DNA from: a virus
Lineage: Duplodnaviria > Heunggongvirae > Uroviricota > Caudoviricetes
IMG/VR virus record: IMGVR_UViG_2609459799_000011
DNA: 5,383 nucleotides
Strand: one strand, 5' to 3'
Shown here: piece by piece, positions 1 to 5,383 of the stretch
Numbering within the stretch: position 1 is the first letter of the stretch
Layout: every line of letters begins with the position of its first letter
The notes under the pieces: model-generated
Databases searched by the model: none
Seen by the model: the letters and a program-made list of their open reading frames with translations, nothing else
What the model was told of the DNA's origin: nothing
Position numbers and translations under genes: made by a program

Positions 1-91
1 GAGTCCCCACCTTGGTTAAACAACGCTTTGGCTCACAGTTTACAACAGGCATGTTAAGCCGTCTCGCAGAGATGTTATTGCAGCGAATATA

Positions 92-185
92 GCGCGGCGA
101 TTTTTTTGATACCGATTTGCATTTCATTTGATACCGCTGAAAAACGCCGATACGCAACTTATTTGATACTAAATCGGCGCTTTTC
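92..185. repeat. Direct repeats of TTTGATAC(C/T) at 105-113, 127-135 and 162-170, flanked by inverted AAATCG(G/C)CGC-like elements (92-103 and 171-182); candidate protein-binding or end-repeat array.
   Basis: Read directly from the sequence: three 9-bp copies spaced 22 and 35 bp apart; GCGCGGCGATTT (92-103) is a near reverse complement of AAATCGGCGC (171-180). Confidence 0.5.
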
Positions 186-215
186 TTTTGGGTTTTAGAA
201 TGAGTTTTTAAGCGC

Positions 216-953
216 TCATTCACTCTCTTTCAAACCAGTTTTAACTGTTTGGGGTTTTGGGTAAGGCTGGACTTTGAATAGCTTTATGTTGAGGCGTTTT
301 CTGGCCCTCTTGTTCAGAAACCGGATGTAACGAAACTGTCGGAACTTATGAACACTGGCTCTGTCGATATTAGCCCTCAGATGTTCACCTCGTTGTCCGC
401 CTCGTTTAATGGCATTCCTGCAAATCTCGTGATACCACTCGCCATCAAGTTCATAGAATGTTGATTCATGGCTGCCTACATAATCAAAATTGCTTGCCTG
501 ATACACGACACCAAGACAGCCACAACGCTCATCTGCAAACGACTGAACCCACTGTACCTGCGGATAAAGCTGTCTGATAAGTTTGAGTGCGTAACTGATG
601 GCCCTTGATTCGGAGTTTCTCGGCATACAGTCATGCAGCCATAACCGGTTAAGCTCCATATATTCGCGGTTCTGCGTACCGGTTACGACGCGCGCTCCAC
701 TGTTTGGATTAAGGGCATAACCCCATTGCATTACGCCAACCAGCTCTCGTTCTGAAAATATACCCAGATGAAGGTAGGAGTTATTTACGAAACGGTGGCT
801 GTAATGTTTATTGACGATGACCAGTCGGGCCAGCCAGCAACTTATTGTCTCAACCCGTAACTCACGGGAGCCATAACCGACGATATTGTCGTTATAGAGA
901 ATAAGTTCAGGCGTGCTGATGATACGGGATGTAACTTGTTTTCTGTTCCCCAC
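216..953 (-). CDS. mom: Mom-like DNA modification protein (adenine-modifying anti-restriction function of Mu-like phages), 245 aa, probable GTG start.
   Basis: 245-aa ORF starts with GTG (no in-frame ATG until about residue 75), overlaps the 3' end of the upstream zinc-finger com-like gene by 47 nt in another frame, and has AGGAA 8 nt upstream. Identity is from synteny with com and gin; Mom sequence itself is not recalled. Confidence 0.75.
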
Positions 954-1107
954 GACAGGATTTCCTTGTGTATGTGGGGTGCTCTGTGGCGCTCGGAGAT
1001 GTGATTTGATTGAGGGTTTTACAGCGCGGACATTTTACTTCCAGATAACTGAAACTGGCCCGTGCCAGTAACTTGTTGCAGTGTCGGCACCGTATGTTTC
1101 GATACAT
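907..1107 (-). CDS. com: Com-like zinc-finger translational activator of mom, 66 aa.
   Basis: ATG start with AGGAGG about 10 nt upstream. Cys pairs CRHC and CPRC resemble the Mu Com zinc finger, and the N-terminus ([14 protein letters not shown]) resembles recalled Mu Com (MKSIRCKNCNKLL). It overlaps the mom start. Confidence 0.75.
948..979 (-). promoter_or_regulatory. mRNA stem-loop sequestering the mom start codon and Shine-Dalgarno (translation-inhibition structure).
   Basis: On the minus strand CCCCAC (plus 974-979) pairs with GUGGGG (plus 948-953), which contains the GUG start; the loop holds AAGGAAA, and CAAGGA can pair with UCCUGU inside it. Confidence 0.5.
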
Positions 1108-1330
1108 GGCCGCATAACCTCCTGCTTTGTTGATGATATCTTTCTCGCCTAATCGATCGACAAAAACGATCGATTCGATGTGTTTAATTGATACAACAAA
1201 TAGATTGAAAAGTCATCAACAATGATTCAGGGAGGTGATTATTTACTAAAAGAAAACGAAGACTTAGGGTGTGAAAACGATCATAAAATGATCATTTTAT
1301 TGACTTTTTATCCAGTGAAGGTAGGATCGC
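1108..1330 (-). promoter_or_regulatory. GATC-rich upstream region of com-mom; candidate Dam-methylation-sensitive promoter control region.
   Basis: Five GATC sites in about 175 bp (1155, 1168, 1279, 1290, 1324), in palindromic contexts: TCGATCGA (1153-1160), CGATCGAT (1167-1174), and the 14-bp perfect palindrome AAAATGATCATTTT (1285-1298). No promoter hexamers could be assigned with confidence. Confidence 0.4.
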
Positions 1331-1367
1331 GCGCATATGTAGTATGTTTCAAATCAACAGGATACTA

Positions 1368-1406
1368 CATAAAAGGGAAACCCAGCATAGCTGGAACTAT
1401 GCTGGG
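1368..1406 (-). terminator. Candidate rho-independent terminator for leftward transcription.
   Basis: Perfect 10-bp inverted repeat CCCAGCATAG (1381-1390) / CTATGCTGGG (1397-1406) with a 6-nt loop; on the minus strand it is followed by UUUCCCUUUU. Confidence 0.45.
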
Positions 1407-1513
1407 TCAATCTGTAAAAACTTGCATCAATGCTTTACTTCGAGCTCGTGGCGTATCCTATGATATTCCCCGGTCTCCTGTAAAGCAGAGATATATCTGT
1501 TCAGGCAGGAAAA

Positions 1514-1720
1514 ATGGATAAACTAACCACAGACCCAAAGTTACAGGCTGCGCGAATTGCAGCTGATATTACAATTGCAGCAATGACATCCACCAGGGGT
1601 AACTTTACCTCTTTTCATACAGCAGGTGATTCATCCGCTATGCAGTTATGGAACGCGTGCTTTTCTGATGTAATTCGTGCAATCAGCGAGTCAGTTGACC
1701 TTCGCGAACCGCAAAAATAG
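1514..1720 (+). CDS. Hypothetical small protein, 68 aa.
   Basis: ATG preceded by AGGCAGGAAAA. It is convergent with the next ORF and overlaps its 3' end by 38 nt, so one of the two may be spurious. No recognisable motif. Confidence 0.35.
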   Translation: MDKLTTDPKLQAARIAADITIAAMTSTRGNFTSFHTAGDSSAMQLWNACFSDVIRAISESVDLREPQK

Positions 1721-1883
1721 CGCATCTTGGGGTACACAGGATCTGCATAGCTATCCACATTGCGGTGGCGAAGTTTCGATCCTGTAATGTATCTTCATCA
1801 AGTCCTGAACGTAGCGCATTGATAATTTCCGCGCTTAATCTTTCTAGGCCTTTGGTATCAGGTTGCTTTTTATTCTTGTCCAT
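1683..1883 (-). CDS. Hypothetical small protein, 66 aa from the internal ATG (78 aa if the upstream ATG at 1919 is used).
   Basis: The internal ATG at 1883 has AGAGGA 8 nt upstream; the ATG at 1919 has no Shine-Dalgarno. Same strand as the two small genes upstream. Confidence 0.4.
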   Translation of the reverse strand: MDKNKKQPDTKGLERLSAEIINALRSGLDEDTLQDRNFATAMWIAMQILCTPRCAIFAVREGQLTR

Positions 1884-1958
1884 GATTATTGTCCTCTGAT
1901 TGGTATATAAAGCGCCCATGAAAATAAAACCGACAGGAGAAACTGCCGGTTTGTATTG

Positions 1959-2213
1959 TTACATCATGGTGCTGTCAGTTCCGGGCTGAGCCGGTTCTGG
2001 TTGCTCTGGCTGCGCGTCGGTTTTCGGTTCATTATCAGCATCACTGGCCGCTGCTGCTGGCCCAATAAGTTTTTCCAGCACCTCATCAACGTAAGTGTCG
2101 ATTTGTGCCTCAAAATCCTTGCGGACCTGCGCTTTCAGCAACTTATTTACTTCACCGGAATACAGTGCCTGTTTTACCAGGTCTTCAGTGACGGTGCCTT
2201 TAATTTCTGGCAT
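1959..2213 (-). CDS. Hypothetical acidic protein, 84 aa, with a helical-looking N-terminal half and a Pro/Ala/Gln/Glu-rich tail.
   Basis: ATG with strong AAGGAGG 6 nt upstream; 35 nt downstream of the preceding small gene; acidic composition. Confidence 0.55.
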   Translation of the reverse strand: MPEIKGTVTEDLVKQALYSGEVNKLLKAQVRKDFEAQIDTYVDEVLEKLIGPAAAASDADNEPKTDAQPEQPEPAQPGTDSTMM

Positions 2214-2248
2214 GTATATCCTCCTTATGCGGGAATAAAGCCCTGCAA

Positions 2249-2431
2249 TCAGGGCTGGGTCGGGTCTTTTGGGAGCGGAGTTGCCTGCGCTGTTTTACTG
2301 AGTTTTTCAGCTGCTGCGTCCTCAATTTTGCGGCGAACATAATTTCTGATGGCCTTATAACCACCACTCACCAGATATAACGCACATACTGCCGTGCAGA
2401 AATACAATAAAATAAGCTGTAAAAATGTCAT
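2249..2431 (-). CDS. Hypothetical small single-pass membrane protein, 60 aa from ATG at 2431 (the ORF track starts at a TTG at 2443).
   Basis: ATG at 2431 with GGGAGGG 5 nt upstream. Residues about 3-23 (FLQLILLYFCTAVCALYLVSG) form a hydrophobic helix followed by a charged tail. Confidence 0.5.
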   Translation of the reverse strand: MTFLQLILLYFCTAVCALYLVSGGYKAIRNYVRRKIEDAAAEKLSKTAQATPLPKDPTQP

Positions 2432-2526
2432 TATCCCTCCCAATTATTGACATGGTGTTGACACCGGTAATATCTGTTAGGTAAAAAGGTGCACTGCATT
2501 TTTTGCTTTGGATATAACGATCTTTT

Positions 2527-2568
2527 TGCCGCCGGTTTCTTGTTTTCCCTTACCGGCGGCATTTTTTT
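2527..2568 (+). terminator. Rho-independent terminator oriented for rightward (plus-strand) transcription, with no plus-strand gene upstream.
   Basis: 10-bp stem TGCCGCCGGT (2527-2536) / ACCGGCGGCA (2552-2561) followed by TTTTTTT (2562-2568). On the minus strand the hairpin is followed by A-rich sequence, so it is not a canonical terminator for the esterase gene. Confidence 0.45.
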
Positions 2569-2575
2569 ATCCTGC

Positions 2576-4630
2576 TTACGCGTTATTCACTTCCACCACG
2601 ATACTGTCAATCAGTACCGGGTAAGTCGCATTTTTAGTGATATCGGTCACGCGCAACTTGTCTGCCGTAAACGTGCCGACCGGAGACTGCGACAGCATGA
2701 ATGGTGTCCCGTCCTTACCATCAATGACCGGCGTCACCTCAATACTGTTGTTACCGGCAAAACGGAAGCCCAGCGTATGCCATTCGTTATTAAATGCGCC
2801 GAATGACCCCAGCTTCGTGTTCTGCGCCGTGTTTCCTTTGTGATACATCACGTTAAGGTCTGTGGCATCGCTCTGTACGTAGAACGATGCCAGCAGGTTA
2901 TGACCGGCATTTCCTTCCAGAGTAACCCCTTGCGGCAGGGCAGAAACCGGCCAGTACAGCGCCAGTGCGTACTGATTAGCCGTAAGCGCGCCATCGAGTT
3001 TAAAACGACAACTGACAAGACCACCTTTACCCAGCAGGTCCGCACCATTACCAGCATCATGCTCAAGGTACCAGGGGGCTCTTCCTGTTTCCTTGGTCAG
3101 TTTCATTGCCTTACCCCCGCTGGCTCCGGCATCATCCACGATTTGAGCCTTGCCACCTCCGGCAGCCCAACCCTGTGGTGTCAACCGTCCTTCAGACTCA
3201 GATGCCCGGTAAGCAAATAGCGTACTCATCGTCGTGGTGTCTGCGGGTGGCGTGGACGGTTTTGATGGTGTATCAGGTGACGGCTTCTCATCCGGTGGTG
3301 TCACGGTCTGCCCGCGCATCAGTTCAGCCGTGCGCCCTGCATGGAGCATAATAGCTGAGGCCAGACGGTCTGAAATGACGCCCCTGCGTGCCCATGAGCT
3401 GAAATGGCTGTCACGCTGTGTCGAAACAAAACTGCCCTGGGTTCGGGATGCTGCACCGTAATACCCGACAGCCACAATATCCGGGTCTTCCGCCGGAGCA
3501 TTCGTTGGCGTGCTCTGTCCATTCTCATCCGTCAGGAACGGTACAAAGAAAATTTTCTGTGCTTCCTTGCCTTTGTAGCCACCGTATACTGCCTCATATT
3601 TATCGGTGCCAGCGTTTTTCCAGTAATACGTGGTATCACCGCAAATCCACGGCACCGTGGTGGCATTTCCACTCACGCACTGCGCAGCAAGCGGAGCCAG
3701 GTCAGTTCTGAACTGCTGAACCATGGCCGTGAATAAACTATTATGCTGCTGGCTTCCTGAGGCAAGGTCTGCCTCTCCCTGCATCCAGACCACAGCCAGA
3801 AGTTTGTTTTTCGGGTTTTTCGCCAGCGCGACTTTGGTGCGGCTTACCAGGTCCTGATACAGAGGTTTACCGGCCCCCCAGCGTGAAGAATCAGCGGAAG
3901 CACCGCTGGCCTCACTGAATGAGCCGTCGGCTCCAGTGGTGAATGCTGACCCGCCACGACAACAGGGCACCAGAAGTATCCCGGCATTCTGTGGGATATA
4001 GGGAAGCAGTTTTTTGGCAATATGCAACCCCTGACCGACAGTCCCGTACTGGCCTTTTGCCAGATCAGCTTTCGGGTGGTTTATCCCGCTCATATCCTGA
4101 ACATCATGCAGGCAGTGGTCTGCCGGAATGATGTCGTTGTATGTACACGACGTACCGTTGGGCGTTACCGTACTGCGGCGTGCCAGTTGCTTAATGCGTG
4201 GGTCCGGGCGGTCAAACGAATCCGGTAACGGCAGCCCCTCGCCGTAGGCCATGCCATTTGACTGACCCGCGAGAATGACAACAAAGTAATATTCCGGCTC
4301 TGAACTGCTGCCATTCGTGCTACCGGAAGGCCCGGCGTTATCCGGTGCATTCCAGTCGGAGGGCGTGAGCGTTCCGGCCACGTCAGATGTGATTGGAATG
4401 ATGCCAGTCACGCCTGAACTGGTGATTTCTGCACTGGGATTACCGGATACCGGCATTACCCATAATGGCTCTTTCGTGCTGAAGCGGATCACGCAGTCTG
4501 CGAAGGTGATCCCCCCTTTATTACCCGAAGGGCGGAAAGGGCTTTCAATAAATGCCACCGTGCCACCGGCAACCTTGACTGAAAACTCTCCGGGCATGGC
4601 GGAGAGCATTTTCCACTTGGAGTCTGACAT
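2576..4630 (-). CDS. Putative carbohydrate O-acetylesterase of the SASA/SGNH-hydrolase type (phage NanS-p-like), 684 aa, with a Pro/Thr-rich linker and lectin-like C-terminal domain.
   Basis: Motifs LAGQSNG (residues 120-126; Ser124 at nt 4259-4261), WMQGEAD (282-288) and DSH (407-409) resemble sialate O-acetylesterase family signatures as recalled. Linker QTVTPPDEKPSPDTPSKPSTPP is at about residues 441-468 (nt 3227-3310), followed by a roughly 215-residue C-terminal region. No N-terminal signal peptide is evident. Confidence 0.8.
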   Translation of the reverse strand: MSDSKWKMLSAMPGEFSVKVAGGTVAFIESPFRPSGNKGGITFADCVIRFSTKEPLWVMPVSGNPSAEITSSGVTGIIPITSDVAGTLTPSDWNAPDNAGPSGSTNGSSSEPEYYFVVILAGQSNGMAYGEGLPLPDSFDRPDPRIKQLARRSTVTPNGTSCTYNDIIPADHCLHDVQDMSGINHPKADLAKGQYGTVGQGLHIAKKLLPYIPQNAGILLVPCCRGGSAFTTGADGSFSEASGASADSSRWGAGKPLYQDLVSRTKVALAKNPKNKLLAVVWMQGEADLASGSQQHNSLFTAMVQQFRTDLAPLAAQCVSGNATTVPWICGDTTYYWKNAGTDKYEAVYGGYKGKEAQKIFFVPFLTDENGQSTPTNAPAEDPDIVAVGYYGAASRTQGSFVSTQRDSHFSSWARRGVISDRLASAIMLHAGRTAELMRGQTVTPPDEKPSPDTPSKPSTPPADTTTMSTLFAYRASESEGRLTPQGWAAGGGKAQIVDDAGASGGKAMKLTKETGRAPWYLEHDAGNGADLLGKGGLVSCRFKLDGALTANQYALALYWPVSALPQGVTLEGNAGHNLLASFYVQSDATDLNVMYHKGNTAQNTKLGSFGAFNNEWHTLGFRFAGNNSIEVTPVIDGKDGTPFMLSQSPVGTFTADKLRVTDITKNATYPVLIDSIVVEVNNA

Positions 4631-4703
4631 CGTCTTTTCTGCCTGTTTCTGAATTAAACAGAGTCAGAATAGCGACCGCTGAAAAATATGTGTTTTGCGG
4701 AAA

Positions 4704-4735
4704 TTCAAAAAAGCGTCACGGTACTTTTGGTGACG
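4704..4735 (-). terminator. Weak candidate terminator overlapping the invertase stop codon.
   Basis: Minus strand: stem CGUCAC (plus 4730-4735) / GUGACG (plus 4714-4719) with a 10-nt loop, then C plus UUUUUU (plus A-run 4707-4712). The invertase stop codon lies within the 3' arm. Short stem and large loop suggest it is leaky. Confidence 0.35.
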
Positions 4736-5288
4736 GAGCTGGTGAGGCAGGAAAATAACGATAAAGGGTGGAAAGGCCAATATCAAATATCAGTGCGATT
4801 TGTTTACGGGACTCGCCATTAGCCAGCAAACGGGCGATTTGCTCCCGCTCTTTCTCTGTCAGTTTCTGAGGTCTGCCGCCATGACGCCCCTGAGCACGGG
4901 CAGCAGCAAGACCCGCGCGTGTACGTTCAATAATGAGTTCCCGCTCCATTTCCGCCAGCGCGCCCATTATATGGAAAAAGAAACGTCCCATGGGAGTGGA
5001 TGTATCAATATTGTCCGTAATGCTGCGGAAGTTAACGCCGCGTTGCCGGAGTTCTTCTGTTAAAAGGACAAGGTGCTGCATACTGCGTCCAAGGCGATCC
5101 AGTTTCCAGACCAGCAGGGTATCCCCTGGCCGGAGTCGCTTTAATGCGCGTTTAAGTCCGGGACGCTCCCTTGTCTTACCGCTTATTCTGTCTTCGAAAA
5201 ACAGCTCACATCCTGCACATTCCAGCGCATTTCTTTGTAGCGCCGTATTCTGGTCATTTGTTGACACCCTGATATACCCAATCAGCAT
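4716..5288 (-). CDS. gin: Serine DNA invertase of the Gin/Hin/Pin/Cin family, 190 aa.
   Basis: N-terminus MLIGYIRVSTNDQNT...LQRNAL, the stretch GDTLLVWKLDRLGRSM, MGRFFFHIMGALAEMERELIIERT and a C-terminal helix-turn-helix (LSTLYRY) closely match Gin and Hin as recalled. AAGGAA lies 5 nt upstream of the ATG. The symbol gin is chosen from the com-mom context. Confidence 0.9.
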   Translation of the reverse strand: MLIGYIRVSTNDQNTALQRNALECAGCELFFEDRISGKTRERPGLKRALKRLRPGDTLLVWKLDRLGRSMQHLVLLTEELRQRGVNFRSITDNIDTSTPMGRFFFHIMGALAEMERELIIERTRAGLAAARAQGRHGGRPQKLTEKEREQIARLLANGESRKQIALIFDIGLSTLYRYFPASPAPSPKVP

Positions 5289-5353
5289 ACGATTTCCTTA
5301 TTATAAAAAGCCGGAATTGTCGCATGAGGAATAAAACAGAGTTAATCCTGGCT

Positions 5354-5379
5354 TTCCTGAAAACCTCGGTTTACGGGAA
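5354..5379. other. gix/hix-type 26-bp invertase crossover site (imperfect palindrome around a 2-bp core).
   Basis: TTCCTGAAAACC-TC-GGTTTACGGGAA; the two 12-bp halves are near-perfect inverted repeats and resemble recalled gixL (TTCCTGTAAACCGAGGTTTTGGATAA). It lies 66 bp upstream of the invertase start. Confidence 0.7.
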
Positions 5380-5383
5380 ACGG

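Follow-up and report, generated by a model that had tools for sequence, protein, structure and literature searches.

Tail-fibre switches driven by serine DNA invertases of the Gin/Cin/Pin/Hin family are well known in phages and prophages. In phage Mu, both gix sites, which we read from NC_000929, have the sequence TTATCCAAAACC TC GGTTTACAGGAA when read outward from gin. Phages P1 and P7 likewise use 26-bp sites with a 2-bp core, switch the tip of the tail fibre and carry an annotated enhancer inside the invertase gene, at its 5' end. The annotated cix sites of P7 are CAATCCTAAACC TT GGTTTAAGAGAA and TTCTCTTAAACC AA GGTATTGGATAA. The outer half is imperfect, so a perfect one is not required for a site of the Gin/Cin family to function. 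Two further systems, the e14 Pin/P-segment and Salmonella Hin/hix, belong to the same serine invertase family and also use 26-bp sites; the four invertases Gin, Cin, Pin and Hin can stand in for one another in trans. The e14 segment is ~1.8 kb and carries two tfa genes, whilst what Hin inverts is a promoter and not the end of a fibre. In the Mu-like Shigella phage SfMu, no host-range difference was seen by the authors who described it, and inversion was suspected to be impaired by a base beside the core of one site (PMC4406740).

We compared these systems with a crossover site at the right-hand edge of the window, as we call the whole 5,383-nucleotide stretch of DNA analysed here. The site, an unstranded gix-type element of 26 bases at 5354-5379 (TTCCTGAAAACCTCGGTTTACGGGAA), is very probably the invertase-proximal site of a two-site Gin-type inversion switch in a transposable Mu-like E. 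coli prophage, the equivalent of Mu gixR. It reads TTCCTGAAAACC TC GGTTTACGGGAA, with the outer half at 5354-5365, the core dinucleotide TC at 5366-5367 and the inner half at 5368-5379. Two imperfectly symmetric 12-bp half-sites thus flank a 2-bp core, the format of Gin, Cin, Pin and Hin sites. Of its 26 positions, 22 agree with Mu gix. As in Mu, the core is TC and the site lies upstream of the invertase gene, with its polarity towards that gene also shared.

The site was found to be unique in the window. No second match to the 26-mer was present there at up to three mismatches, and 200 shuffles gave none. The exact core pattern AAACC-NN-GGTTT occurred once in the window and in 0/200 shuffles; with two mismatches allowed, four occurrences were found against 3.0 expected, placing the other three at chance level. 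For a broader scan we assembled a half-site consensus from the Mu and P7 sites (gix/cix), and this returned no second site in the window above the shuffle maximum. A partner-type sequence was likewise absent from the window, and none of the inverted repeats in the window takes in 5354-5379. An earlier annotation made from these bases by a model without database searches (the sequence-only reading) had claimed a single gix-type site, upstream of the invertase gene, and these scans bear that out. One other candidate was considered, a 31-nt repeat at 313-343 and 4623-4653 (71% complementarity) that brackets the esterase module and contains the half-site-like TTCAGAAACC. It was rejected as a chance match, its full-site score of 12/18 being at the level of shuffled sequence.

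The neighbouring gene (4716-5288, minus strand) encodes an intact serine DNA invertase of 190 aa belonging to the Gin/Cin/Pin/Hin family. The protein combines an N-terminal catalytic Resolvase domain (Pfam, 1.6e-51) with a C-terminal helix-turn-helix (HTH_7, 4.9e-15) and shares 74% identity with Mu Gin in an ungapped alignment of 184 aa. It is 74.6% identical to the Gin-like invertase of SfMu and 72.6% identical to Cin of P1/P7. Residues 4-13, GYIRVSTNDQ, align gaplessly to GYVRVSTNDQ of Gin, and the catalytic-serine motif Y-x-R-V-S-T-x-x-Q is present (YIRVSTNDQ). The best solved relatives are the Gin structures 4m6f and 3uj3 (E 2.5e-88), and the PHROG match is 'DNA invertase' (1.9e-94). An NCBIfam search added nothing for the invertase, the esterase or the small ORFs of the window.

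A distance of 65 bp separates the crossover site from the invertase start codon (ATG; 5288, minus strand). The spacer (5289-5353, minus strand) presumably holds the promoter and leader region of the gene, and its position matches the gixR-gin spacer of Mu (~55 bp). A consensus promoter scan of the spacer found no sigma-70-like site. Within the 5' end of the gene, alignment alone points to a candidate Fis-dependent recombinational enhancer at 5203-5270 (minus strand), which aligns to nucleotides 19-86 of P7 cin, annotated as an enhancer in the P7 record. DNA identity to Mu and P7 is 78-81% across this stretch, compared with 57-72% over the next 114 nt, and the protein is at its most conserved in the part encoded here. 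Its conservation would fit an enhancer and could equally be explained by coding constraint.

To the left, the window runs to the end of a prophage. Over 20 complete E. coli genomes contain prophage copies with 98.5-99.9% identity to the window from about position 88 to 5383. The Mom protein led to ten further assemblies, in which the element lies elsewhere in the chromosome and differs from the window at 3-7 of 5,284 positions. Together, the complete genomes and these assemblies hold it in at least nine different insertion sites. At nine separate insertion sites, similarity between the flanks is lost right past ...GCGCTATA, marking window position 88 as the prophage terminus. Since the same element lies at many chromosomal sites and its flanks diverge at once past this sequence, we identify the window as the right-hand end of a Mu-like, transposable prophage of E. 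coli, with host DNA in bases 1-87. The host-prophage junction of the window had no exact match in a search of one genome per species, and its flank was not shared by the ten loci fetched via Mom. Just inside the prophage end, the motif TTTGATACCG occurs at 105-114 and 127-136 and TTTGATACT at 162-170; these repeats may be transposase-binding sites. A literature search found no published description of this particular prophage.

Family searches placed mom at 216-953 and com at 907-1107, both on the minus strand. Between com-mom and the invertase, ~3.6 kb (1108-4715) are taken up by the esterase gene, a DUF1378 gene and a DUF826 gene, these two also on the minus strand, and three small ORFs without a family. 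The esterase (2576-4630, minus strand; 684 aa) was assigned from its SASA and DUF6645 domain matches. The esterase-DUF1378-DUF826 trio resembles the NanS-p module found in lambdoid phages and in Stx phages, and by this analogy the 3.6 kb suggest cargo captured in a hotspot. More than one copy can be present per genome, as in TOE17 and DLI.5a, which have two or three prophage copies or remnants (L019, L020, L021). The remnants have a 1-base invertase frameshift and tail-gene deletions, yet both segment orientations occur among them.

To follow the locus beyond position 5383 we used the prophage of strain NCCP15648 (locus L001), which is 99.9% identical to the window and in which the window site lies at 14272-14297. 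A partner site, TTCCCGTAAACC GA CGTTATCGATAA, was found there at 15589-15614, inverted, with a complementary core, and within the gene for the tail fibre (15250-16131, minus strand). In prophage copies with 98.5-99.9% identity to the window, it lies 1,291 bp to the right of the first site. Its inner half is the same as that of the window site, whilst its outer half differs at five positions (5/26), including a C-to-G change beside the core. The in-fibre site of SfMu (TTATCCAAAACG TC GG...; L017 1346-1371) has the same change. A search of the extended locus with the window site at up to three mismatches returned only the site itself and no second copy, because the outer half of the partner has diverged too far. 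The partner was instead recognised as the head of an 86-nt inverted repeat with 90% complementarity, joining L001 14277-14362 to 15524-15609. These two are the only gix-like sites in the 23-kb locus, ruling out a multi-site system of the shufflon or Min type.

In window coordinates the partner would fall at ~6671-6696 by extrapolation, 1,288 bases past the window end, provided that the genome of the window shares the right-hand continuation of its near-identical copies, as it probably does. To the right of position 5383, TTCCCGTAAACCGACGTTATCGATAA or something very similar would then be expected ~1.29 kb past the site, within a fibre gene. The last four bases of the window (ACGG, 5380-5383, plus strand) are the first four of the invertible segment past the site and part of the 86-nt inverted repeat. 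Both orientations share these four bases, and the window alone therefore does not reveal its own orientation; the first base that distinguishes the two is L001 14303, equivalent to window position 5385. In some genomes a 65-aa ORF, WP_071995513.1, is annotated through the crossover site toward the invertase start (L003 3120-3317; L006, L013 and L014 3456-3653), and in window coordinates it would overrun the right end and stop near 5301. It is called solely where the invertase-side repeat arm has one allele and is probably spurious.

Between the two cores, the segment measures 1,319 bp and contains an expressed fibre tip of 113 codons, a silent tip of 116 codons that lacks an N-terminus, and one tail-fibre assembly gene. 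The assembly gene (tfa; L001 14697-15218; Caudo_TAP, PHROG 136) adjoins the silent tip in L001. The partner site falls at fibre codons F-I-D-N-V-G-L-R-E-T-V-N-R-A and gixL of Mu S at F-I-Q-N-L-G-L-Q-E-T-V-N-R-A (shared F-I-x-N-x-G-L-x-E-T-V-N-R-A). The crossover is thus placed at a homologous position of the fibre protein in Mu, and the constant part of the fibre is 47% identical to Mu S. In-silico inversion at the cores was in frame both ways, giving fibres of 293 and 296 aa with residues 1-180 in common; in the inverted form the 296-aa fibre is followed by the assembly gene. Both isoforms cover the full length of PHROG tail-fibre family 1833, and a Pfam search returned no family for either. 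A GC-rich hairpin, AGAAGGCCTTCCGGCCTTCT, lies inside the segment between the converging fibre and tfa genes (L001 15222-15241). Only on the minus strand did the scan class it as terminator-like, although its palindromic form might let it work in both directions. A consensus promoter scan upstream of tfa on its own strand found no sigma-70-like promoter.

In near-identical prophage copies, then, the extended locus agrees with the remaining structural claims of the sequence-only reading. It had placed the invertible segment beyond position 5383 with a partner site within about 5 kb to the right, and the partner is indeed there, 1,291 bp beyond the first site. It had proposed alternative tail-fibre ends as in Mu, and two tips that fuse in frame were found. 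It had also left the esterase out of the segment, correctly, as that gene is on the other side of the invertase.

Next, the orientation of the segment was surveyed. Junction queries of 651 nt for both orientations were run against 5,426 complete E. coli genomes. We found orientation A in 18 cases and orientation B in four, at 99.8-100% identity, with one further diverged B. All 10 of the further assemblies were in orientation A by whole-segment comparison. The skew, 18 against 4-5, could be consistent with slow or biased inversion. We relied on the 651-nt junctions and whole-segment comparison for all orientation calls; short diagnostic junction strings were dropped as markers because outer repeat polymorphisms are shuffled among alleles and make such strings misleading.

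The clearest evidence of inversion came from strains NCCP13983 and NCCP15648, which have the prophage in the same elfC insertion site. The NCCP13983 region showed 0/6,651 mismatches to an in-silico inverted NCCP15648, compared with differences spanning 14303 to 15583 against the uninverted sequence. With the same insertion site, identical sequence and opposite orientations, the flip must have happened in the prophage state. The exchange maps to the outermost identity block of the repeat, 19 bp long (14284-14302) and beginning with the core; the longer blocks (32 bp and 23 bp) were not used. Exchange in the block that starts at the core is the prediction of invertase-mediated exchange at the core. 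The sequence-only reading had anticipated orientation heterogeneity, and both orientations do occur among finished genomes, including these strains with a common insertion site; the heterogeneity is between assemblies, not reads.

Taken together, these results are best explained by the following mechanism. An invertase dimer would bind the window site and the inverted partner inside the tail-fibre gene. Both sites would be cut at the central TC/GA dinucleotide and exchanged, inverting the 1,319-bp segment, a step that may depend on Fis and the candidate enhancer. Inversion would fuse the constant N-terminal 180 fibre codons to either the 113-codon or the 116-codon tip, and this swap of tips presumably changes host range.

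Not all variation among the alleles fits exchange at the core. Polymorphisms in the outer repeat (the first ~40 nt inside each site; L005-L014 and L018-L021) have in several alleles been exchanged or evened out between the arms with no net inversion, indicating that homologous exchange or gene conversion between the arms also occurs besides core exchange. In addition, two defective copies in DLI.5a share a 1-base frameshift of the invertase gene but differ in segment orientation. Their flip was not made by a cis-encoded invertase and needed either an invertase acting in trans or homologous recombination. Both observations favour the view that the inversions are the product of general (RecA-type) homologous recombination between repeat arms of 86-136 nt, of which the gix-like sequence is merely a part. 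The frameshifted copies would, however, also be accounted for by trans complementation among Gin-family invertases, and all identity blocks of the repeat are very short for RecA-type recombination. The cleanest pair, from the shared elfC site, exchanges in the block that starts at the core and not in the longer ones. General recombination also leaves aside the intact Gin homologue 65 bp away and the likeness of the site to Mu gix in sequence, core and polarity. We therefore regard it as a very unlikely source of the inversions.

A second view, that the site is a relic, is in our judgement extremely unlikely. The switch would have been frozen by decay of the partner half-site, and the two orientations inherited from different infecting phage particles. 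The five mismatches in the outer half of the partner, including the base beside the core, fit such decay, the same change having been suggested by the SfMu authors to reduce or abolish inversion (PMC4406740), and the predominance of orientation A fits a frozen switch. Independent infections are contradicted, however, by the NCCP13983 and NCCP15648 pair, in which the flip took place after insertion. Decay is also difficult to reconcile with the half-site variant TTATCGATAAC being kept in a diverged relative, with the outer half of the functional P7 cixR being imperfect too (TTATCCAATACC), or with the intact invertase reading frame in the window. The Gin-type switch is thus the reading that we retain.

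The diverged relative is a Mu-like element in Stx2c/Stx1a converting phages (LC727881, LC727895), the closest deposited phage record at ~85% nucleotide identity over 23% of the window. Its invertase is 78% and its tfa 62% identical to those of the prophage, and it has a similar esterase; its fibre tips are just ~48% identical. Its crossover sites are TTATCGATAACC TC GGTTTACGGGAA and ATCCCTGAAACC TC GGTTTACGGGAT, and the in-fibre site keeps the C beside the core where the prophage has G. The element (L016 2475-4375; LC727881) has the same three-part segment with a single tfa gene. The layout is thus probably maintained and not an accident.

This layout has one Caudo_TAP gene alongside two tips, unlike the Mu G, P1 C and e14 P type, in which each tip has its own co-oriented assembly gene. 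The gene is co-oriented with the fibre in orientation B only and converges on the fibre gene in the commoner orientation A. In orientation A the tip shows homology to S' of SfMu, a tip followed by a chaperone gene, and also to fibre tips of the P1 and P2 types, which we take to have an adjacent chaperone gene as well. It is possible, though less likely than not, that the segment is a conserved minimal variant of Mu G (1.3 kb, two tips, a single assembly gene) in which inversion also sets whether the chaperone gene lies downstream (B) or converges (A). If so, either one chaperone would serve both tips via a separate promoter, or the fibres of one orientation would assemble poorly, making inversion a partial on/off switch; the asymmetric partner site could bias the orientation equilibrium. 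With the single-chaperone layout seen again in the diverged relative, assembly of the second tip is a question for both elements.

The main value of these results lies in correct annotation. The site delimits one side of an invertible, presumed host-range segment in an E. coli Mu-like prophage that is both widespread and mobile, being found at many insertion sites and in more than one copy in some genomes. An invertible fibre end accounts for the inconsistent public annotation of the fibre gene as 'partial phage tail protein' or 'hypothetical protein'. The natural data also indicate that the C-to-G change beside the core, the suspected inversion block of SfMu, does not stop both orientations arising in this prophage family.

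Mu is among the closest known systems. The order at the right end of the transposable phage is the same, with fibre, invertible segment, invertase and com-mom. Several details differ: the segment is 1.32 kb, compared with ~3 kb for Mu G, and is arranged as Sv, one tfa gene and Sv' in place of S-U-U'-S'; the two sites are identical in Mu but differ in their outer halves here; and Mu ends in CA whereas this prophage ends in TA. In both Mu and SfMu, com-mom directly follows the invertase, a place occupied here by the 3.6-kb module of esterase, DUF1378, DUF826 and other ORFs. The upstream fibre region resembles what we take to be the e14 arrangement, a fibre module preceded by a YmfQ-family baseplate gene, and YmfQ is annotated at this locus. 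P1/P7 differ in other respects: the core is TT/AA and the segment ~4 kb, compared with TC/GA and 1.32 kb here, and the P7 site overlaps the 3' end of cin with the segment downstream of the invertase gene, whereas here the site is upstream of the invertase. SfMu has the classic four-gene arrangement with two chaperone genes, compared with a single chaperone gene here, and its inversion is suspected to be impaired (PMC4406740), whilst both orientations are documented in this prophage. The system is thus an ordinary new example of the well-known Gin/Cin/Pin/Hin tail-fibre switches, unusual only in its single chaperone gene and its skewed orientation.
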